From the NCBI GenBank assembly GCA_001029775.1, contig CP011215.1:618303-682302 (forward strand): a stretch of DNA of 64,000 nt. Reading direction: 5' to 3'. Position numbers and translations under genes: made by a program. Origin of the DNA: Candidatus Campbellbacteria bacterium GW2011_OD1_34_28 (GTDB lineage Bacteria; Patescibacteriota; Minisyncoccia; Phycocordibacterales; UBA12079). The stretch's first letter is position 1. Each line of letters begins with the position of its first letter. The notes beneath the pieces are model-generated. The model had not been told where the DNA came from, did no database searches, and was given only the letters and a program-made list of their open reading frames with translations. Positions 8,059 to 20,888 of the stretch are shown here, piece after piece.

Positions 8059-8085
8059 AAAAAAGTCGCCGAAGCGACTTTTGTG
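8059..8085 (-). terminator. Terminator with a cUUCGg tetraloop on the minus strand. Nearly identical to the hairpin at 14307-14334.
   Basis: Minus strand reads GTCGC-TTCG-GCGAC followed by TTTTTT. It lies immediately 3' of ORF 8088-9254 and matches the 14307 copy at 23 of 24 positions. Confidence 0.75.
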
Positions 8086-8087
8086 CA

Positions 8088-9254
8088 TTAATCAGTATTC
8101 CAAACTTTAAAAAATAAATATACCAAAATAAAGATTATCAAAAGAATGACCAACCAAATCCACCAAGGACTGTCTGAAAAGAAACCACCTGCCATAGCAA
8201 CATTTTTTAAATTGTCAGAAGCAGAAAAAGAACTCGTTGAAACGGTAGTGGTAGTACTTGTGACTTGTCCATTATTATCTTTATCATTTAAAATAAGAGT
8301 CCCCCCATCGGTCAATTTCATAACTAAATCCAAATCGTTGTCTGATAAACCTTCGTGAAAACCAGAATATCCTGAAAAATATCTTTCTTCCTCTGCACCC
8401 AATTTTTGATTGATTTCTTCTTCGGTCAACATTTTAAAACTATGTTCTATTCCAACTGTTGCAGGTGAAGCATGAGAAACGGCTCTATAATAATAAGTTT
8501 TTCCAGCCTCCAGATCAGCCAACAAAACCGAGTGATTCAAAACTTTTACCAAATCCTCGCTCGTGCCATAAGGATATCCATAATTAGGAAGTGATAAATC
8601 TAGAGAATAATTTTGTCCCTCCTCTCTGTAAATTACTTGACTCGTAGAGAGATAACTTGTGTTCCATTGAATTACCACGGAATCAAGATTTAACAAAATA
8701 CTTGTTTCATTCTTTATGGTCAAACCGCGTGGTGCACTTCCTCCTCCCCCACCAGCGCCAGAATTTACAAACACTCCTCCCTGAAAACCAATCAATAGAT
8801 CAAAAGTTGAGGAAAGTGATTGATATTCGTTCTCTTTTTCAGGAAGGAATGTAACAATAAAATCGTATTCGGCACTAGATCCATTATTTAAATTACCCAA
8901 ATTAATTTCGTCGCCATTCAAAAAATCCTCCAAAGAACCATTGAACAATTCGTTGTCCTCTCTTTTAATAATTAAATTTATGGCCTCTGACAAACAAGGT
9001 GTTTTATCGCAAGAGTTTGAATTAATTGCGGAAACAACAACAGTTTGAGATTTGCCAAGAGTATTTGTAACTTTTATATATTTTGTAACAGACTCACCTG
9101 GAATAAAATTTATTTCAGAAAAGAGCGGTGTACTTTCAAACTCTACGTCTAAACCATTTTCGGCATAAACAATATTACTAGTACCAAAAAACAAAGCAAT
9201 GAAGAAAATTATTATATTCAATTTTATTTTTAAAACTTTCATATTATTCTTCAT
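8088..9254 (-). CDS. Secreted, C-terminally membrane-anchored protein (388 aa) with a Gly-rich linker. Last gene of the TasA/SipW-like operon.
   Basis: N-terminal signal peptide, a GAGGGGGS linker, a Ser/Thr-rich stalk, and a C-terminal TM helix (WWIWLVILLIIFILVYLFF). Confidence 0.6.
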   Translation of the reverse strand: MKNNMKVLKIKLNIIIFFIALFFGTSNIVYAENGLDVEFESTPLFSEINFIPGESVTKYIKVTNTLGKSQTVVVSAINSNSCDKTPCLSEAINLIIKREDNELFNGSLEDFLNGDEINLGNLNNGSSAEYDFIVTFLPEKENEYQSLSSTFDLLIGFQGGVFVNSGAGGGGGSAPRGLTIKNETSILLNLDSVVIQWNTSYLSTSQVIYREEGQNYSLDLSLPNYGYPYGTSEDLVKVLNHSVLLADLEAGKTYYYRAVSHASPATVGIEHSFKMLTEEEINQKLGAEEERYFSGYSGFHEGLSDNDLDLVMKLTDGGTLILNDKDNNGQVTSTTTTVSTSSFSASDNLKNVAMAGGFFSDSPWWIWLVILLIIFILVYLFFKVWNTD

Positions 9255-10617
9255 TATTATTTAAATCTTCTTCATCTTCAGAATTAACAGGAATAATATC
9301 CTCTTGTTTAATAAGTACAACATCGTCACCCAACAAAAGAACAGGGTCAGTTTCGGTTACTTCCTCTTTCTTTTCATTTATTTCTTTTTGTTTAGACTCA
9401 AGTTCGGGTTCGGGTTCTGGTTCAACCTCTACTACTATAGGTTCTTCAACAAAAACATCTTTCTTATTTTCTTCCGAAACATCTTCTTCAAGATTATTTG
9501 CGACAAATTGAATATTCTCAATGACAACATTGTGTGGATTTGTTCCCGGATTTGGACCAACTGGTGTTGACCCATCATAAGTATCCATCCAATCATCCGC
9601 CGTGTTAGTATCAATTCCTTTTTCTTTTCTTGAAATCGAATGTCCCAAAATCACGGCTGAGACAGACGGATTGAAAGCGGTAATATTGTCACCCCAACTA
9701 ACTGAATCAATCAAATTATTTTCATCATCATAAAGCATAAGGACATCACCATTATCATCCAGACCGTCGTCAAACATTTTTGTTCCACCCAAAGCAATCT
9801 TGAAAGCATTGTCTGGAATATCTGGCCAATATGCCCAAGTAGAAGCATTTGCGGCAATCACAACAAACTGGTGTGATTCTATTATGTAATTTTGATTTAT
9901 TAGTTCACTATTATCTTCATTGTTTAAATACCATTTCTTAATATTAACTTCGTGATCACAAACATTATAAAGCTCTATCCACTCATCGTTTGGATTGTTT
10001 TCAAAACCATTTGCACCTTCTCTAATTCCTGGGTAATAATAAACCTCGTTAATCTTTATACAAGATTCTGGTACAGGTTCAGGAGTTAATTCATCAATAA
10101 ATACCGTATTAGAAACATCTTCTTCATCACTAAAACCTCCCACGCCATACTCGGGAAAATCTTCTTGCCACCCCTGATAGACAAAATTGAAATCGCAATA
10201 ACCATAAGAATTTTCTCTTGCTTCTAATTGAAATTGCCAAATCCCCAAACTAGTTGTTGCATAAGAAAAATCATTTATATAACCATTGTAAACTTGGACA
10301 CCGTTTAAATTAGCCACCAAAATTAAATTTTCACACAGACGATTCCTGTCACCAAATTCTGGTAAAATCTTGTATTTAAAATCTAAACTACCTTCATTTT
10401 TTATTTCTATACTGGTGCTGGCAGAACTTAACATATTAGAGTTTTCAAAACCATTTCCAATTAAAACAAAATCCAGAGATGCGACAGAAAAATTGATTTT
10501 GGAAGACTCTACATCACTGTGATAAGCATAAACTTTAACCGCAACAAAAGAAAAGGAAATCTGAATAATCAAAGACAAAACTGTGTAACTTATTATTTTT
10601 TTAGTTAAAGTTTTCAT
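9244..10617 (-). CDS. Secreted lamin-tail-domain (LTD) protein with an acidic low-complexity C-terminus (457 aa).
   Basis: INEVYYYP...NDEWIELYN...VNIKKWYL matches the LTD signature. Signal peptide present. The C-terminus is EPEPEPE/EEK-rich. Confidence 0.6.
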   Translation of the reverse strand: MKTLTKKIISYTVLSLIIQISFSFVAVKVYAYHSDVESSKINFSVASLDFVLIGNGFENSNMLSSASTSIEIKNEGSLDFKYKILPEFGDRNRLCENLILVANLNGVQVYNGYINDFSYATTSLGIWQFQLEARENSYGYCDFNFVYQGWQEDFPEYGVGGFSDEEDVSNTVFIDELTPEPVPESCIKINEVYYYPGIREGANGFENNPNDEWIELYNVCDHEVNIKKWYLNNEDNSELINQNYIIESHQFVVIAANASTWAYWPDIPDNAFKIALGGTKMFDDGLDDNGDVLMLYDDENNLIDSVSWGDNITAFNPSVSAVILGHSISRKEKGIDTNTADDWMDTYDGSTPVGPNPGTNPHNVVIENIQFVANNLEEDVSEENKKDVFVEEPIVVEVEPEPEPELESKQKEINEKKEEVTETDPVLLLGDDVVLIKQEDIIPVNSEDEEDLNNNEE

Positions 10618-10626
10618 AAATATTTT

Positions 10627-11142
10627 TTATGTATTACTCTTTTTTGTTTTTTTTATCTCTTTCCATATTTTTTTGGATTCATCATAAACAATTATTACGC
10701 CTGGGATTATAATCAAAATTGCGAAACCAAAAGGTTTTCTTGCTTCTTGAACAACATAACCAGCATAAGGTAAACTAAACAAAACTTTTCCAATTACATC
10801 TTCTTTCGGGACATCTTTTGGGTCTTTGTCATCGTTGGCGTCTCCTTTTGTTATGTAATAATAATCCCCTTCTATCACTTTTATATCTACAATCCTGTGG
10901 GTGATAGGGGTCTCACTTTTATAAACATCACCAAAAGTTATAACATCACCTACCTGATAATCATCACTCGGTTTTATTACAGCTACACTTCCCGTCTTTA
11001 TTGCCGGCTCCATTGATCCAGACTGTACAACTCTTAATTCATAGTTACCTGTTATGGGGAAAATTGATGCAATCATGAGAACAGCCATTAAAAATATCGC
11101 GAAGACAACTATGTAATAAATGATTTTAATTAACTTATTCAT
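10627..11142 (-). CDS. sipW: Type I signal peptidase of the SipW/Sec11 (S26B) type (171 aa).
   Basis: N-terminal TM helix, the SGSMEP catalytic Ser motif, and ITHRIV (His). It sits directly downstream of two SipW-cognate-signal proteins. Confidence 0.8.
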   Translation of the reverse strand: MNKLIKIIYYIVVFAIFLMAVLMIASIFPITGNYELRVVQSGSMEPAIKTGSVAVIKPSDDYQVGDVITFGDVYKSETPITHRIVDIKVIEGDYYYITKGDANDDKDPKDVPKEDVIGKVLFSLPYAGYVVQEARKPFGFAILIIIPGVIIVYDESKKIWKEIKKTKKSNT

Positions 11143-11266
11143 ATCTTTGTAACGGACTTTGTTAAAGCCTTTATTGACCGCCCGAACTTACCTCACAGTT
11201 CAAGCGGTCTAAAAAGTTTCAAACTTTTTAAAAGAGAATCGAAATTAGAAATTAGTGTTTCTAGTA

Positions 11267-12568
11267 CTAATCTAGTTCCTCTTCGTCTAGGTTGATATTT
11301 TCACAAGAGAAGTTCTCATTGTTTCTTACTTGTTCCGCGTAAGCAGTCAGACTTGCTTCAAGCGAATCTGATTGCGCGTCATCAAGCATTCCACTTCCAT
11401 CACAATTAATTTCTCCTGTTGTGTGATTTACTTGGATATCTCCGGCACACCAAGCAAAGCCTACATATCCTGTTGGGCCACCTCCCGCAAGTGACATCTG
11501 AATAACTTCTGTTTGGATATTTCCCTCATACAGACTATCCTCTGTATTAGGTTCATAAACGCCATCGCCGTCATCTTCCCAAGCAAAAATATTGATGTAA
11601 TCGGAAAGCTCCCCTAAACCTGCAGGATTTCCGCTGGTAAGGGTATCTCCTACACTTTCTTCTGTTTCAAGAAGCTCATTTTCTTCATCATTCATGTCAT
11701 GTATTATCAAACATGCGTAAGCATCATTTGAATTGACATGTAAAGAAATTAGGTTTGTTCCCCAATCAGATGGTTTTACATCCCCAAAATTGAAGAATTT
11801 TTGTGATCCGTCAAGATCAGTTTCTCTCCAAAGTTGACAAGCTTTTTTGAATTCACTATTTGCGTCACAGTCTTCTGCATCGCGAGTAACAGTGAGGTAG
11901 TAAAGCAAGCCTCCTGGATTATTAAGTGGGGTGTTGTATGCAGGATTAGTTTGGGTTAAATTAGTTACAACAAATGTAAGTGTGTTTTCACCCGGTACAA
12001 CCTGCGCCAAGAATGACGCTTCTGATACAGGGTCAAGTGTTGTATATTGAGCACTTCCCGAACCAGCTGAAATGGATACTCCGTTTAGGAATAATTCATA
12101 TTGGTTATCAGCTGCAACATCCATCACTAAATCAACACTAACAGCATCACCCCACCAATCGAATTCATGTTCAAAGGTGTAAGTAACATTGCCATCTGTA
12201 CCATCATCACCAACTAAAGTAGCTGGAGAAGCCCAAATCCATTGTGCTGTTGGATGGGTTGTCCAATACTGGAGAGTAATGGGTGTATCAATTACGATAG
12301 GAGCTTGAAATGGAAATACTGTAATTTCTGTATTAACACCAGAAACAACATCTGCTCCACCATCGCCACTGAAAAGTACCAGTGAGCATGATTCACAGTC
12401 ATCGCCATTATAAGTTTGTGCCAAATGATCTACTTTGAGGTCAATAGATCCGGCAGTGAATATGTTTCCTGCCGAGGTTTCTGTGTCATTGAAGAAAGCA
12501 TAAGTTCCTCCAATAATCACCGCCCCGGCCAAAACAATCGTGCCTAGGCTAAAAATTATTTTTTTCAT
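11267..12568 (-). CDS. TasA/camelysin-like secreted protein with a SipW-cognate class signal peptide, paralog 2 (433 aa).
   Basis: N-terminal ...GGTYAFFNDTETSAGNIFTAGSIDL is the classic SipW-cognate motif (AFFxDTETS..N.FtaG.lDL). Shares the KFFNFxDxKPxDxGxNxISLHV and C-terminal Y.EQ.RNN.F.C blocks with ORF 12596-13753. Confidence 0.75.
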   Translation of the reverse strand: MKKIIFSLGTIVLAGAVIIGGTYAFFNDTETSAGNIFTAGSIDLKVDHLAQTYNGDDCESCSLVLFSGDGGADVVSGVNTEITVFPFQAPIVIDTPITLQYWTTHPTAQWIWASPATLVGDDGTDGNVTYTFEHEFDWWGDAVSVDLVMDVAADNQYELFLNGVSISAGSGSAQYTTLDPVSEASFLAQVVPGENTLTFVVTNLTQTNPAYNTPLNNPGGLLYYLTVTRDAEDCDANSEFKKACQLWRETDLDGSQKFFNFGDVKPSDWGTNLISLHVNSNDAYACLIIHDMNDEENELLETEESVGDTLTSGNPAGLGELSDYINIFAWEDDGDGVYEPNTEDSLYEGNIQTEVIQMSLAGGGPTGYVGFAWCAGDIQVNHTTGEINCDGSGMLDDAQSDSLEASLTAYAEQVRNNENFSCENINLDEEELD

Positions 12569-12595
12569 GTTTTTAAGTTAGCTTTAGTCTGATAA

Positions 12596-13753
12596 TTACA
12601 GATCTGAATCTGTGTATGTTATGAGATTTAACTCAAACAAAGATTCTATTCCCACTGGCCATGTGGTTACGCTATTAGTTCCTGAGTTATATTCTGATGA
12701 TTTTATTACCCAGATTTTTGCACCTCCTGGATAATTAGCATCGGCTGAATCAGGAAGATTCATTCCCAAATTTACATCTCCTGAAACACTGGCATCACCA
12801 CTGCCGTCAGTTGTCAGTGTTCCGATTAATGCGCCTGGATTATTTCCTGGCCATCCATCAGCATAATAGATGATACTGTATTGAGTTGAAGCAACTAAAC
12901 CAGATACATCTAATGTGTAGTTAAATGTTGGGTGAGACGAAATGAAAGTTAATTCTCCTTCAACCCCATCATCTAGATAAGGATCCCATGTACCATCAAT
13001 ATCTTTGTTTTCTAATTTAAGAACAGTTCTCACTGGTTCTTGATTGTTTATACTTCCACAGACAAATTCATCATTGTTTCTTGCTTGTTCAACATAGAAA
13101 CTAATGTCACCTGTCATACTATCTGTTTGGATTTCGTTTCCAACTGATGCTGGAACACTCCATGAAACACCAATGTATGTAGTAGATGCTCCTGTCAATG
13201 GACCTGTTGCTGTTGTTGAGTCATAGATAGACAAAACACCATTGGCAGGATTACCTGATGTCAATGTTTGTTCACTTCCGTTTTGAATATTGTCGCCTGC
13301 AACCCCACCGCCTGCGCCATTATCTCTCCAGACGTTCCAAACCATAACACTTGATAGTTCACCATCGTTTACGCCAGTAGTTAAATCTACTGAAGCTTCT
13401 GGTTCTGTTTGACCGTTTTCAAGATCAGTCAAATTGGAAACTTCTGCACAAACCCAAGCGTCATTATTGATAACATGCAAACTGATGGTATTCTCTCCAG
13501 AATCCCCTGGTTTTATGTCATCAAAATTAAAGAACTTATCCGATGTTGGGATTAGATCTTTTTCTGCCCAAGTTGCGGCTTCAACATCCTCTCCATTATA
13601 GGTAGCAGTGCTATCTATTCTTAGATCGATTGCCCCAGCCGTAAAGGTGTTTCCTGTAGACGTTTCAGTGTCACTAAAGAAAGCGCCTGTAGCTCCAATA
13701 ATTATCGCTGCTGCTGCGACAATTGTCGAAGCACTAATGATTATTTTTTTCAT
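12596..13753 (-). CDS. TasA/camelysin-like secreted protein with a SipW-cognate class signal peptide, paralog 1 (385 aa).
   Basis: N-terminal ...GATGAFFSDTETSTGNTFTAGAIDL. Paralog of ORF 11267-12568. Confidence 0.75.
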   Translation of the reverse strand: MKKIIISASTIVAAAAIIIGATGAFFSDTETSTGNTFTAGAIDLRIDSTATYNGEDVEAATWAEKDLIPTSDKFFNFDDIKPGDSGENTISLHVINNDAWVCAEVSNLTDLENGQTEPEASVDLTTGVNDGELSSVMVWNVWRDNGAGGGVAGDNIQNGSEQTLTSGNPANGVLSIYDSTTATGPLTGASTTYIGVSWSVPASVGNEIQTDSMTGDISFYVEQARNNDEFVCGSINNQEPVRTVLKLENKDIDGTWDPYLDDGVEGELTFISSHPTFNYTLDVSGLVASTQYSIIYYADGWPGNNPGALIGTLTTDGSGDASVSGDVNLGMNLPDSADANYPGGAKIWVIKSSEYNSGTNSVTTWPVGIESLFELNLITYTDSDL

Positions 13754-13989
13754 AATTTTAATAAATTAAATTAGTTTATAAGTTTATATTTATTTGCCAT
13801 TTATATTAAATATAAAAAATGTCTTATTTTACTTTTTGTCTTTAGTTGTTTTTTATTTATTTTTTTATTTACATAGTTTTTTAAAAAAAATTAAGATTGA
13901 TAATTCTCGACCTTTCTTATTACAGACAATAAATATGTAAGTTTTTATTGAATGCAAAAAAGACTCTTTTAAAGAGCTTCTAGAATTAC

Positions 13990-14085
13990 TGAGGTAGATT
14001 GCCGAGGTAGAATTACCAAAAGCGTGCCAGCGTGGAATGAGGTAGAGAGTGAGAGGTAGAGTGCTTGAGGTAGAGTGACTGAGTA
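13990..14085. repeat. Five direct copies of GAGGTAGA (iteron-like) within about 90 bp.
   Basis: ctGAGGTAGAttgccGAGGTAGAatt...atGAGGTAGAgagtgaGAGGTAGAgtgcttGAGGTAGAgtgactGAGTAGAta. Confidence 0.8.
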
Positions 14086-14212
14086 GATATTTTTTTAATT
14101 AACCTAATATCAATTATATAGATATATACCTGTATATGTCAACTTTAAAAATGTATATTTTTTGTAATCAAAAAAACCTTATTTAAAAGCTTTTTTAGGC
14201 TTATACAAAAAG

Positions 14213-14524
14213 TTATCCACAGTTTTTAAACTTGAGTTATCCACAGTTTAAAAACTGTGGATAACTTAAAAAACGTCGTTGAATTTAAATTATTTTTAGA
14301 AAAATGAAAAAAGCCGCCGAAGCGACTTTTTTCAATGTAGATATTAATCCGAAAATTAATATCTACATTGTATCCACAGATCCGAAAATCTACGGATACA
14401 ATGTAGATATAAAACCGAAATTTTATATCTACAGCGTACTTACTAGTCCGAAGATTAGTAAGTACATTTCTATCTTAACCAATTGAGATAATTTGTCAAT
14501 ACTTTTTCGATTAACTGTGGATAA
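14213..14524. promoter_or_regulatory. Cluster of DnaA boxes (TTATCCACA). Perfect 9-mers at 14213-14221 (+), 14237-14245 (+), 14256-14264 (-) and 14516-14524 (-). One 8/9 box (gTATCCACA) at 14370-14378.
   Basis: Boxes 2 and 3 form a perfect palindrome AGTTATCCACAGTTTaaAAACTGTGGATAACT. Four perfect copies of a single 9-mer within 312 bp is far above chance in 64 kb. Confidence 0.7.
14307..14466. repeat. Array of five tandem hairpins with a conserved CCGAA(A/G) loop (UUCG-type loop on the minus strand) and variable stems.
   Basis: H0 GCCGC-cgaa-GCGAC; H1 ATGTAGATATTAAT-ccgaaa-ATTAATATCTACAT; H2 TATCCACAGAT-ccgaaa-ATCTACGGATA; H3 TGTAGATATAAAA-ccgaaa-TTTTATATCTACA; H4 TACTTACTAG-tccgaag-ATTAGTAAGTA. 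Confidence 0.8.
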
Positions 14525-14556
14525 CTTGGAAACAATTAATTTAAAAGGTTGGCTTA

Positions 14557-14910
14557 TTATTCTTCCTCTTTAAGTTTAGCTGCAGCTTCTGGCGTTGATA
14601 CCGTTTTACTGATCAGAAATAAACGGACAATTGCATAAGCGATTATCCAATACACCAGCATTGCCAAAAGAGTTGTCCACTCAAAGACGCTACCCTCTAG
14701 AGTTGTCTGTGGGAATACTGCAAGAAAAGGAGCAGTAAATGGCCGTGTAATACCGTAGATAAAACTTGTGAATCCAGCTACAGGATTTGCCCCCATAAAT
14801 TTGAGTGCAAAACGGAACGCAAGCAATATTTCAAGAAGAGAAAGAACATACCACACAATTTGTGTGCCTTTAAATAAAGGTTTCGTAGTGGGAGAATTAT
14901 ATGAGTCCAT
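14557..14910 (-). CDS. Small integral membrane protein, possibly YggT/Ycf19 family (117 aa).
   Basis: Three or four predicted TM segments. Weak similarity to YggT. Low confidence on family. Confidence 0.4.
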   Translation of the reverse strand: MDSYNSPTTKPLFKGTQIVWYVLSLLEILLAFRFALKFMGANPVAGFTSFIYGITRPFTAPFLAVFPQTTLEGSVFEWTTLLAMLVYWIIAYAIVRLFLISKTVSTPEAAAKLKEEE

Positions 14911-15194
14911 AATTTTGAATGTTAAATGTTAATAAAATATATTTTTAATTAAATTATTAATTATTGTTAGTCTTCAAATATCGACCTTTTTAAAAATTGA
15001 TAGTTAAAAAATTTTTTCCCAAAATTAAGTGCTGTTCGAGCCGATATTCTTATCCGTTTCTTTGGTGTTTTTTAATTTAAGGATTTTAGTTTTAAATTTT
15101 TGACAAATTTCTTGTTATCGAAAATGGAGAGGTGTATTAGAGCTACTTTAAGAATACCACCGCAAAATCTAAAAGTCACGGAGTTTAAAAACTG

Positions 15195-15610
15195 AGAGAG
15201 GAATCGGTCACGAGTCACTAAATATATTTAGTGCTCGCGATATTGTTCTGTGGATTATAAGAGAGGAATCGTCCCGCGGTTACTAAGTAAATTTTTCGCA
15301 AGCTCAAATTTACTAAGTACCGCTGGACGCGACTCAAAATTATGCTCCCAGCATAATTTTTCCGTCGTTCGATTCCTCTTTGGTCCTACAAAATCAAAAG
15401 CCCCGATGTTTTCACATCGGGACTTAAGATTTTGTGGAGAGGAATCGGCTCCCAGTTCTAAACAAAAATATGGACCAGAGAGGAATCGGTCACGAGTCAC
15501 TAAGTCTTTTGTTCATTCTTCGCTTCGCTACGAACTCCAAAAGCCTAAGTGCTCGCGACCCCGGCTCGTCTGTTTTGCTTCGCAAAACATGACTCCGCCT
15601 TTCGATTCCT
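15195..15610. repeat. Multiple partial copies of the tRNA-Ala 3' end (T-arm plus acceptor, core GAGAGGAATCG), in both orientations.
   Basis: Copies at about 15195, 15259, 15436 and 15471 share up to 19 nt with the tRNA 3' end. Inverted copies (TTCGATTCCTC) lie at about 15368 and 15597. Associated motifs GTCACGAGTCAC and TAGTGCTCGCGA each occur twice. Confidence 0.8.
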
Positions 15611-15654
15611 CACGAAAGCAAAGCAGTTTGCTTTCTTCTGGCACAGCAACACAA

Positions 15655-15688
15655 AATAAAACACCATCTAAAAAAGATGGTGTTTTAT
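15655..15688 (-). terminator. Terminator immediately 3' of tRNA-Ala.
   Basis: AAAACACCATC taaaaaa GATGGTGTTTT. Confidence 0.7.
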
Positions 15689-15698
15689 TTTGGTTGTG

Positions 15699-15772
15699 TG
15701 GACCAGAGAGGAATCGAACCCCCGGCCTCCTCAGTGCAAGTGAGGCGCTCTAGCCAACTGAGCTACTGGCCC
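15699..15772 (-). tRNA. tRNA-Ala (anticodon UGC), 74 nt, CCA not encoded.
   Basis: Cloverleaf deduced manually. Acceptor GGGCCAG/CUGGUCC with the G3:U70 Ala identity pair. D-arm GCTC-AGTTGGCTA-GAGC. Anticodon arm CCTCA-CTTGCAC-TGAGG. T-arm GGGGG-TTCGATT-CCTCT. Confidence 0.85.
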
Positions 15773-18503: not shown

Positions 18504-19607
18504 TTAAATCGTAAAATCTTTTATTGAGTATAAATCGGATTCATCTTCTTTTGGCTGTTGATCTGGAACACTCTCCGCCATAACATCGTCTTTGTCCCAA
18601 TCTGTCTCCTCTATCATTGTCTTTTCTTCTTGTGTCGGAATCATTGCTTCTTCTTCTGTGGCAATATTTTCTGCAACAACATTTTCCGCAACAACATCCA
18701 AATCATTACCTTCGGGAACTGTCTCAACAATTCCATTTGTCTTTATATAATTGTCCAACATTTCATAAGGATTTTTCTTTTCATTTGAGTGAACAAGTTC
18801 TAGAATCTTTCTCAAATCTTCATTAGAAAAGAAATCTATTGTCAATTTGCCTCCGACTTCCCTTCTCTCAATTTGTACTCTTGTGCCCAAAGATTCTGAC
18901 AATTGTCCCTCCAATTCTACCATCTCTGGATCAGGGGGAAGATATCTTTTTCTGATTTTGTCATGAGCAATTTTTCTTGCGATTGCTTCTGCATCACGAA
19001 CTGTCAATTTTTTAAAGACAATTTCTTTAAACAAAGTATCTTGTTCTTCCGGTCTATCTTTCAACATCAGAATTGGTCTAGCGTGTCCTTCGGTAATCTG
19101 TCCTGCAGAAATTGCTTTTTGCATTTCATCTGGAAGTGTCAAAAGTCTTAAACTGTTTGAAACATATTCCCTACTTTTTCCTACTTTTTTTGCAACTTCA
19201 TTGTGCTTAAAACCAAATTCTTCTGTTAGTCTATGGAAAGCCAACGCTCTGTCGATCGGGTTAAGATCTTCTCTCTGCAAGTTTTCAATAATTGCCAATT
19301 CAAGTTTTGCTCCTTCGTCTTGATCTCCTTCTCTAATGATTACTGGCACTTGTGACAAACCCGCCAATTTTGATGCTCGCAATCTTCTTTCTCCTGCGAT
19401 CAATTCGTATTCTGCCATCAAACCGCCGTCTGGTTTTTGTATTTCATACCGTGTTACAACGAGAGGTTGAAGCACCCCATACTGACGGATTGAATCCGCC
19501 AAAAGTTTAAGCTTATCCTCGCTAAATTCTTTTCTTGGCTGATATGGATTTGGTTTTATTTTTTCTACTTCAATCCAAAAGATTGAATCATTTTGAAATT
19601 TTGACAT
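18504..19607 (-). CDS. parB: Chromosome partitioning protein ParB/Spo0J with an acidic C-terminal extension (367 aa).
   Basis: ParB box GERRLRASKLAGL, an HTH, and an N-terminal ...KIKPNPYQPR.... No parA lies adjacent. Confidence 0.9.
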   Translation of the reverse strand: MSKFQNDSIFWIEVEKIKPNPYQPRKEFSEDKLKLLADSIRQYGVLQPLVVTRYEIQKPDGGLMAEYELIAGERRLRASKLAGLSQVPVIIREGDQDEGAKLELAIIENLQREDLNPIDRALAFHRLTEEFGFKHNEVAKKVGKSREYVSNSLRLLTLPDEMQKAISAGQITEGHARPILMLKDRPEEQDTLFKEIVFKKLTVRDAEAIARKIAHDKIRKRYLPPDPEMVELEGQLSESLGTRVQIERREVGGKLTIDFFSNEDLRKILELVHSNEKKNPYEMLDNYIKTNGIVETVPEGNDLDVVAENVVAENIATEEEAMIPTQEEKTMIEETDWDKDDVMAESVPDQQPKEDESDLYSIKDFTI

Positions 19608-20108: not shown

Positions 20109-20888
20109 TTATTGTGCTGTACGGAAAGAAGCAGGAGTGGTTATGCTCACATTTTTTGATGAGTCAAACACCACAATCAAATAGTAATATGTTGTATTTG
20201 ATGTGAGGTTATTGATGTTTACCGTGTGAGTAACACGGGCAAGACCATCATATTGAGCCAATGTTCCAGTTACTATAGGTTCTCCTGAGAAAACTCCAGT
20301 TGCATCAAATATATTACTTATTCTAATAGGTGATGTACTGTAATATACTTTTCCCATAGAAGCTTCACTTGCTGTCCAAGTAACGGATGCTCCATCATTA
20401 TCAGTAGTTACATTTATACTTTTTATTGTAGGAGCATAAACATCCCCACCAACATTTCCACCACCTCCAAGTCTTGCATTAATAGCAGCTTGTGTTAGTG
20501 GACCAACACGACCATAACCAGTTGTCGCTGGTGTTCCTTGGGAAACGATTCCCACCGATGTTTGAAATCTTTCTACTGCTGCTTTGGTAAGTTGACCAAA
20601 GTATCCAGTAACCAAACCTTCAGGATAGATACTCACATCTGTAGCGAGATATGTCTGAAGTTCAGTGACTTCCGAACCACGGTCACCAAGGTCCAACTGA
20701 CTAGTGATGACAGCATAGGCACTTTGAACGCCAAAGACCAACAAAGCAAGCATGGTCATCATTGTCACACCAAAGAGAAAACCTATGCGTGGTATATTCT
20801 TTTGTAAATTTATTATTTTGTTCATGTTATTTTTGTTTAGATTAATAATAGAGATTGTTAAGTTAAAATGTTTTACATGATCGACCAT
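20109..20888 (-). CDS. Secreted protein with a peptidoglycan-binding domain (PG_binding_1) and a C-terminal Ig/FN3-like beta domain. An internal ATG at 20825 is possible.
   Basis: Signal/anchor helix. DLGDRGSEVTELQTYL...DGYFGQLTKAAVERFQ matches the PGBD consensus. Confidence 0.65.
   Translation of the reverse strand: MVDHVKHFNLTISIINLNKNNMNKIINLQKNIPRIGFLFGVTMMTMLALLVFGVQSAYAVITSQLDLGDRGSEVTELQTYLATDVSIYPEGLVTGYFGQLTKAAVERFQTSVGIVSQGTPATTGYGRVGPLTQAAINARLGGGGNVGGDVYAPTIKSINVTTDNDGASVTWTASEASMGKVYYSTSPIRISNIFDATGVFSGEPIVTGTLAQYDGLARVTHTVNINNLTSNTTYYYLIVVFDSSKNVSITTPASFRTAQ

Follow-up and report, generated by a model that had tools for sequence, protein, structure and literature searches.

A cluster of DnaA boxes near parB in a Campbellbacteria genome: a putative transcription-control region rather than the chromosomal origin

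In the genome of Candidatus Campbellbacteria bacterium GW2011_OD1_34_28, four perfect DnaA boxes lie in an 803-bp spacer about 4 kb from parB. We are confident that this box cluster is not the chromosomal origin of replication. Judging from sequence comparison, the 0.8-kb spacer is probably a transcription-control region with non-origin DnaA boxes, at which binding of DnaA and use of two adjacent promoters are predicted, and it may also titrate DnaA. The original prediction had left three roles open (a chromosomal origin, a plasmid-like or secondary origin, or a DnaA-regulated or DnaA-titrating control region for the adjacent fibre operon), and the comparative data favour the last of these.

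The spacer and its DnaA boxes

The window, which is the whole stretch of 64,000 nucleotides that was analysed, has a G+C content of 34%. It matches contig LBQN01000002.1 of GCA_000990865.1, a metagenome-assembled genome from groundwater, and its DNA recurs in other assemblies. To the left of the spacer lies a fibre operon encoding two camelysin/TasA-like proteins, a SipW-like signal peptidase, an LTD-domain protein and an FN3-like protein, followed by ychF (about 7 kb from the boxes) and leuS. To the right, beyond yggT, we found tRNA-Ala, a DUF2914 gene, an rluB-like gene and parB. The relatives of ParB all belong to the Paceibacterota (Parcubacteria/OD1, Campbellbacteria-like), and the parB neighbourhoods of 65 of them were compared (±10 kb each, about 1.1 Mb in total). 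Among the related loci, L001-L003 and L069 are from the same species, L004 is from a sister species (ParB 97% identical), L070 and L071 are 93%-identity relatives, and L073 carries a first fibre gene that is 79% identical to that of the window. The features discussed below are the following:

8082-8061, minus strand: fibre-operon terminator with a UUCG loop, nearly the same sequence as the small-RNA terminator
8088-13753, minus strand: fibre operon, first gene at 12596-13753
Between the first fibre-operon gene and yggT: spacer of 803 bp containing the boxes, repeats and AT-rich block
13754-13989, minus strand: AT-rich remainder of the fibre-operon leader, 86% A+T over 13754-13930
13990-14093, minus strand: leader repeats, six copies of (C)TCTACCTC (GAGGTAGA on the plus strand; the CTCTACCTC repeats)
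14113-14142, minus strand: predicted sigma-70-type fibre-operon promoter (TTGACA, 18 nt, TATAAT; 12/12 consensus match)
14210-14267: three-box cluster, with boxes 1-3 at 14213-14221 (+), 14237-14245 (+) and 14256-14264 (-)
14300-14466, minus strand: structured small RNA of about 165 nt, four UUCG-capped hairpins and a terminator
14465-14436, 14433-14402, 14401-14368 and 14367-14336, minus strand: adjoining hairpins 1-4, each with a UUCG loop
14334-14305, minus strand: intrinsic terminator of the small RNA, C(UUCG)G loop
14472-14499, minus strand: predicted sigma-70-type small-RNA promoter (TTGACA, 16 nt, TAAGAT)
14513-14527, minus strand: DnaA box 4, TTATCCACA at 14524-14516 inside the shared 15-mer AAGTTATCCACAGTT
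14557-14910, minus strand: yggT, the right boundary of the spacer
15772-15698, minus strand: tRNA-Ala, right of yggT
18504-19607: parB, about 4 kb from the box cluster

Perfect copies of TTATCCACA start at 14213 (+), 14237 (+), 14256 (-) and 14516 (-), spanning 312 bp, and the 64 kb contain no other copy. Shuffled sequences held 0.64 copies per 64 kb on average and none of 100 shuffles reached four. The four perfect boxes of the original prediction are thus far above chance. All four boxes share 14-15 nt (AAGTTATCCACAGTT), indicating that they are duplicates of one unit; the units of the three-box cluster are 22-24-nt duplicates of the box-4 unit. Boxes 1 and 3 are joined by a 23-nt perfect inverted repeat (14210-14232 with 14245-14267, 12 nt apart), which is followed by TTTTTGT on the minus strand; with this T run, the repeat may also serve as a back-up terminator. 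The 32-bp perfect palindrome described before (14235-14266) turned out to be interrupted at its centre by a non-palindromic AA, with a perfect arm of 15 nt on each side. The three-box cluster is present in L001-L003 and L069, all of the same species, and absent from L004, L070 and L071; it is species-specific and probably arose recently. The locus of L004 has a single box.

An additional box matching at eight of nine positions had also been proposed. The sequence (GTATCCACA) is indeed found at 14370-14378, but it forms the 3′ arm of the third hairpin of the small RNA and reads GTATCCGCA in L070, so that it does not hold as a DnaA box.

Several observations were made in the surroundings of the spacer. 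The 3′ end of tRNA-Ala (CGATTCCTCTCT[GGTCCA]) has six or more copies, scattered and pointing either way, at 15190-15700 of the window, downstream of the gene on the minus strand; such copies are also present at 5760-6010 of L004. They resemble what would be left of att sites after repeated rounds of site-specific integration; no integrase was found near them. Relative to the window, tRNA-Ala is inverted in L004, L070 and L071. The fibre operon is flanked at both ends by near-identical UUCG terminators (AAAAGTCGCTTCGGCG[A/G]CTTTTTT) at 8061-8082 (-) and 14305-14334 (-). In L004, which is without the fibre operon, the small-RNA terminator is followed by the same small ORF of about 75 aa that lies at 7945-7720 (-) in the window (about 6554-6780 in L004), a layout consistent with deletion of the operon between the terminator repeats. 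The two TasA-like genes (11267-13753, -) have GC3 skews of -0.21 and -0.22, compared with about +0.25 in other minus-strand genes, which suggests an atypical composition or foreign origin of the operon. In L070 (4042-4744) and L071 (2613-3297), a PG_binding_1 plus FN3-like gene directly follows the conserved leader and the TasA-like genes come only afterwards; a protein with the same Pfam pair is encoded next to parB in the window (20109-20888, -).

A structured small RNA and the fibre-operon leader

The earlier reading of the spacer missed a small structured RNA gene on the minus strand. This gene explains about 230 bp of sequence, and both the 8/9 box and one of the perfect boxes can be attributed to it. 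The minus-strand fold of this RNA has a free energy of -82.1 kcal/mol (z = -13). Across four sequences, all 272 pair cells hold standard pairs, and changes on one side of a stem yield G.U pairs that fit the minus strand only. Compensatory double changes were found in six pairs (L071 included), a number reached by none of 500 shuffles, which supports the hairpins. The possibility that the palindromes are double-stranded DNA operators was rejected because the stems in L071 change with compensation and the G.U pairs fit one strand.

Box 4 sits 16 nt upstream of the -35 element of the predicted small-RNA promoter and is centred near -55. The homologous promoter hexamers are TTGACA/TAATAT in L070 and TTGACT/TAATAT in L071. 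In L004, L070 and L071 the arrangement of box, 16-17-nt gap and -35 element is kept while the sequence of the spacer between them diverges. Homology with L004 starts exactly at box 4 and stops just past the terminator, with different flanks on either side (no yggT, tRNA-Ala inverted). L070 contains the same module. In L071 the box has one mismatch, the gap is 17 nt and the promoter is similar; the hairpins number only two there, while the terminator is the same. The box stays linked to the small RNA despite the inverted tRNA-Ala and the variable presence of yggT among the relatives.

A covariance model of the small RNA gave matches only in L004, L069, L070 and L071, which represent the same species and three close lineages. 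Weak matches in L061 and at L071:1589-1700 were rejected as unrelated hairpins or terminators. When the window was compared with Rfam, no family matched the hairpin RNA at the gathering or E-value threshold and only tRNAs passed. The best sub-threshold match was rsmX (28.6 bits against a gathering score of 56), and it mirrors the serial-hairpin shape only. Antisense pairing between the small RNA and the leader repeats (GUAGAU with AUCUAC) was also considered and rejected, as it comprises 5-8 nt inside stable stems and the motif is lost in L071. After the small-RNA terminator, a second conserved hairpin (AAAAATG[T/G]AAAAAGCCAGCGACATTTTTTC) was observed at 6380-6470 of L004, where it is duplicated, at 3600-3650 of L070 and at 2110-2150 of L071; in the window, its position is held by the three-box inverted repeat.

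The original prediction saw no credible ORF in the roughly 0.8 kb. An ORF of 60 codons does exist on the plus strand at 14304-14486, antisense to the small RNA, and is annotated as a gene in public assemblies (e.g. LBQN01000002.1), but its substitution pattern is non-coding. The ratio of synonymous to non-synonymous changes is 0:8 in L004 and 1:13 in L070, compared with 62:10 for parB. We therefore regard the ORF as spurious and evolving as non-coding sequence. Its four 11-residue repeats (xVDIxPKIxIY) arise only because the hairpin period is 33 nt. That the hairpin array is really a gene for a 60-aa repeat protein is very unlikely, even though none of the five sequences, that with two hairpins included, interrupts the reading frame, the period is divisible by three and the gene has been called in public assemblies. 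Besides the codon changes, minus-strand base pairs, G.U pairs included, survive every substitution, the first ten codons coincide with a bidirectional intrinsic terminator, and the ORF lacks an upstream Shine-Dalgarno sequence.

The second minus-strand unit is the fibre operon. Its predicted promoter lies between the boxes and the leader repeats, with a predicted transcription start near 14106. The TATAAT hexamer and a downstream AGGTT are kept in L070 and L071, and TTGACA is present in L073. Boxes 1-3 are located 71-127 bp upstream of this promoter, with their centres at about -110 to -155 relative to the predicted start. Both the repeats and an AT-rich tail fall within a predicted 5′ leader of about 350 nt. 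The five direct GAGGTAGA repeats noted before were recovered on the plus strand at 13991, 14004, 14039, 14053 and 14067, along with a degenerate sixth copy at 14081, and have a period of 14 nt; the whole window contains 10 copies, while 0.96 are expected. The extreme AT-richness reported for 13754-13930 also holds, and 13745-13894 (90% A+T) are the most AT-rich 150 bp of the window. Upstream of the homologous operons in L069, L070, L071 and L073, there are 3-5 copies of the leader motif in the corresponding position, and the conserved islands AAGGTCGA and AATGGCAAA of the leader recur. This conservation of repeats, -10 element and islands at homologous operons indicates that the repeats and the AT-rich block belong to the leader and not to an unwinding element.

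DnaA boxes were also found at homologous fibre operons elsewhere. The operon of L073 lies in a different gene context (hemerythrin, PrgI, GT2). Shortly ahead of its TTGACA and TCTACCTC repeats, a perfect tandem pair of boxes and two further boxes with one mismatch are found within 180 bp. In L083, two tandem one-mismatch boxes are located upstream of the homologous operon. The background rate of such boxes is 0.27 per kb. The flanks of the L073 boxes differ (GGTTATCCACAGG) and L070 keeps only the 11-mer AGTTATCCACA, so that the conserved core is the DnaA 9-mer. Across species, boxes thus accompany the predicted small-RNA promoter in L004, L070 and L071 and the fibre operon in L073 and L083. 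The conserved feature is the linkage of box and predicted promoter, not the chromosomal position.

Signatures of a replication origin

For the skew analysis, coding-strand skew was separated from replication skew in the window and a 10-kb rightward extension to 71.7 kb. Minus-strand genes have a coding-strand GC skew of +0.22 on both sides of 14.3 kb and a GC3 skew of +0.16 to the left and +0.25 to the right, while plus-strand genes show values of +0.065 and -0.09, respectively. Between 14.3 and 71.7 kb the minus and plus genes differ clearly (Mann-Whitney p = 1e-7), whereas minus genes left and right of the cluster do not (p = 0.53). Third codon positions are G-rich on the minus strand to either side of the cluster, which makes this the leading strand on both sides, and a fork passes through the site from the right. 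Neither the site itself nor the 57 kb to its right show a leading-strand switch. Moreover, the cumulative skew, proposed as a check in the original prediction, keeps falling through the site and has no minimum there in the window. Genes to the right of the cluster are mostly on the minus strand up to 31 kb.

In the basal unwinding module of bacterial origins, a DnaA box is followed by DnaA-trios within 0-16 nt (PMC8287927). When the boxes were scanned with up to one mismatch and in either polarity, none was followed by three or more trios within 16 nt. The AT-rich block is about 280 bp away from the nearest box, and the consensus promoter and the repeats lie in between. No dnaA, dnaN or parA was found among the ORFs of the window that were scanned, and tblastn with approximate query sequences of B. 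subtilis DnaA, DnaN and Soj gave no match in the window or at 68 further loci. The original prediction was thus right in placing parB 4 kb away in a window without dnaA or dnaN. The parB gene is solitary, with no parA/soj, dnaA or dnaN within 10 kb in this genome and in 65 Paceibacterota relatives, and in the RAAC4_OD1_1 record (693.5 kb) it lies mid-contig at about 363 kb. Clusters of perfect boxes were likewise lacking in the roughly 1.1 Mb around parB of the 65 relatives. With neither box clusters nor dnaA or dnaN at these loci, parB is no origin marker in this lineage.

We consider it extremely unlikely that the spacer is the chromosomal oriC, or half of a bipartite origin, in which DnaA on the boxes would unwind the AT-rich block. 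Four consensus boxes within 312 bp, the most AT-rich stretch of the window nearby, and parB and ychF at 4 and 7 kb would fit such an origin, and parB and ychF are often origin-proximal in other phyla. However, the leading strand does not switch out to 71.7 kb, trios are missing next to every box, and the 280 bp that split the boxes from the AT-rich block contain a promoter and conserved leader repeats. Nor are dnaA and dnaN found in the window or at the parB loci of the 65 relatives, and the cluster is missing in the sister species. Just as improbable is the idea that a plasmid-like element was acquired at a tRNA-Ala integration hot spot and that the spacer is its origin, either still active or a remnant. 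The combination of boxes, direct repeats and an AT-rich block resembles the layout of iteron plasmids, and the att-like copies of the tRNA-Ala 3′ end at 15190-15700 and the rearrangement of the region between close relatives would suit integration. Plasmid iterons are 17-22 bp long and in helical phase, though, whereas the repeats in the spacer are 8-nt cores with a period of 14 nt that are kept as a fibre-operon leader in four lineages. In addition, the scanned ORFs include no Rep, integrase or partition gene, and no similarity to the region was found among 72,556 plasmids or 50,697 phages. Viral contigs contained no exact match of two signature patterns from the region.

DnaA boxes as candidate regulatory sites

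In the reading that we favour, a transcription-control region with non-origin DnaA boxes, intergenic consensus boxes adjoin predicted promoters: box 4 lies 16 nt from a -35 element and boxes 1-3 lie 71-127 bp from the fibre promoter. DnaA would bind the consensus sites at both minus-strand units, and its level or nucleotide state would modulate the small-RNA and fibre promoters. Such modulation would couple the production of the small RNA and of the fibres to replication status, and the four high-affinity sites would sequester some DnaA as a side effect, as in the non-oriC clusters of B. subtilis. From the sequence we infer that DnaA binds and that the promoters are used, as well as how regulation is directed and the roles of the RNA and the leader repeats. 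Some points speak against this reading. Both promoters are consensus matches, and the three-box cluster occurs in one species only, where the perfect identity of its boxes could reflect recent duplication rather than selection. Its inverted repeat with the T run could be no more than a back-up terminator. The boxes in L073 and L083 lie between divergent genes and might serve the other gene instead. Furthermore, boxes at -110 to -155 are far upstream for simple repression.

Two other explanations concern the boxes themselves. If they were not DnaA sites, they might form a longer 14-15-nt site of another regulator or the arms of terminator or single-stranded DNA hairpins, such as a primosome-loading DnaA-box hairpin. 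The 14-15 nt common to the four copies exceed what DnaA needs, the region is dense in hairpins, and the 23-nt inverted repeat precedes a T run on the transcribed strand. We nevertheless think this unlikely, as the 11-mer of L070 and the flanks of the L073 boxes leave the DnaA 9-mer as the conserved core, and box 4 is located upstream of a promoter and outside the hairpins. Slightly less likely still is a dedicated element of the DnaA cycle like datA or DARS, which would titrate, inactivate or recharge DnaA and affect transcription incidentally. The three-box core, with one box opposite to the other two, has the layout of the DARS core (PMC5742627), every box is a perfect high-affinity consensus, and non-oriC clusters restrain initiation in B. 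subtilis (PMC3245932). Yet even the sister species lacks the cluster, a set of four boxes is small for titration, and conservation is seen in how boxes are linked to particular promoters.

Going beyond the preferred control-region reading, the UUCG hairpin-array RNA would represent a new class of DnaA-controlled regulatory RNA that, together with the boxes and the CTCTACCTC repeats, couples surface fibres, maybe serving host attachment, to the replication cycle of a CPR bacterium with a reduced genome. We put this forward as a speculative and rather unlikely extension.

These results remove a false origin call, as the box cluster and parB together would misplace oriC in this genome; in the 65 Paceibacterota relatives, parB is linked neither to dnaA nor to DnaA-box clusters. 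They also give an initial indication, open to testing, that DnaA may control a transcriptional regulon in the Candidate Phyla Radiation (CPR), with a lineage-restricted small RNA and TasA-like operons as candidate targets. CPR organisms are not yet genetically tractable, so that their regulation can be approached by few means, conserved cis-elements among them. To our knowledge, no DnaA regulon has been described for CPR.

Parts of the region recall known systems. The small RNA resembles CsrB/RsmX-type sRNAs in its short serial hairpins with an identical loop motif and a following terminator. It differs in having UUCG tetraloops instead of GGA and long abutting stems of 12-15 bp, and it was not recovered as a member of that family. 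The fibre operon is similar to tapA-sipW-tasA of B. subtilis, where camelysin/TasA-like subunits and a SipW-like peptidase are likewise encoded behind a long repeat-bearing regulatory region. The regulators of the B. subtilis operon are SinR, AbrB and others, not DnaA, and we know of no counterpart of the CTCTACCTC leader repeats.

With E. coli DARS1/DARS2 and datA, the spacer has in common a short non-coding cluster of DnaA boxes, a superficial likeness. The DARS core likewise has three boxes of which one is inverted, and E. coli datA adjoins a tRNA operon. The biochemical activities of these elements are ADP release and ATP hydrolysis. The cluster described here is not conserved in the sister species. 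The basal unwinding system of bacterial oriC consists of DnaA boxes, DnaA-trios and an AT-rich element (PMC8287927, PMC6669920). Consensus boxes and an AT-rich stretch within 0.8 kb are reminiscent of it, but there are no trios within 16 nt of the boxes, no skew switch and no linkage to dnaA, and the AT-rich block lies at a distance from the boxes and has the character of a conserved mRNA leader.

In B. subtilis, clusters of DnaA boxes outside oriC regulate neighbouring genes and collectively restrain initiation (PMC3245932); non-oriC clusters or DnaA-regulated promoters include those of sda, yydA, ywlC and dnaA (PMC3245932, PMC4447404). The spacer is like these clusters in that consensus boxes occupy intergenic promoter regions away from an unwinding site. 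In contrast to B. subtilis, the spacer has only four putative sites, which are without exception perfect and were probably duplicated recently. A hairpin small RNA and an operon for TasA-like fibres would be under their control, and the organism is a member of the Paceibacterota (CPR).
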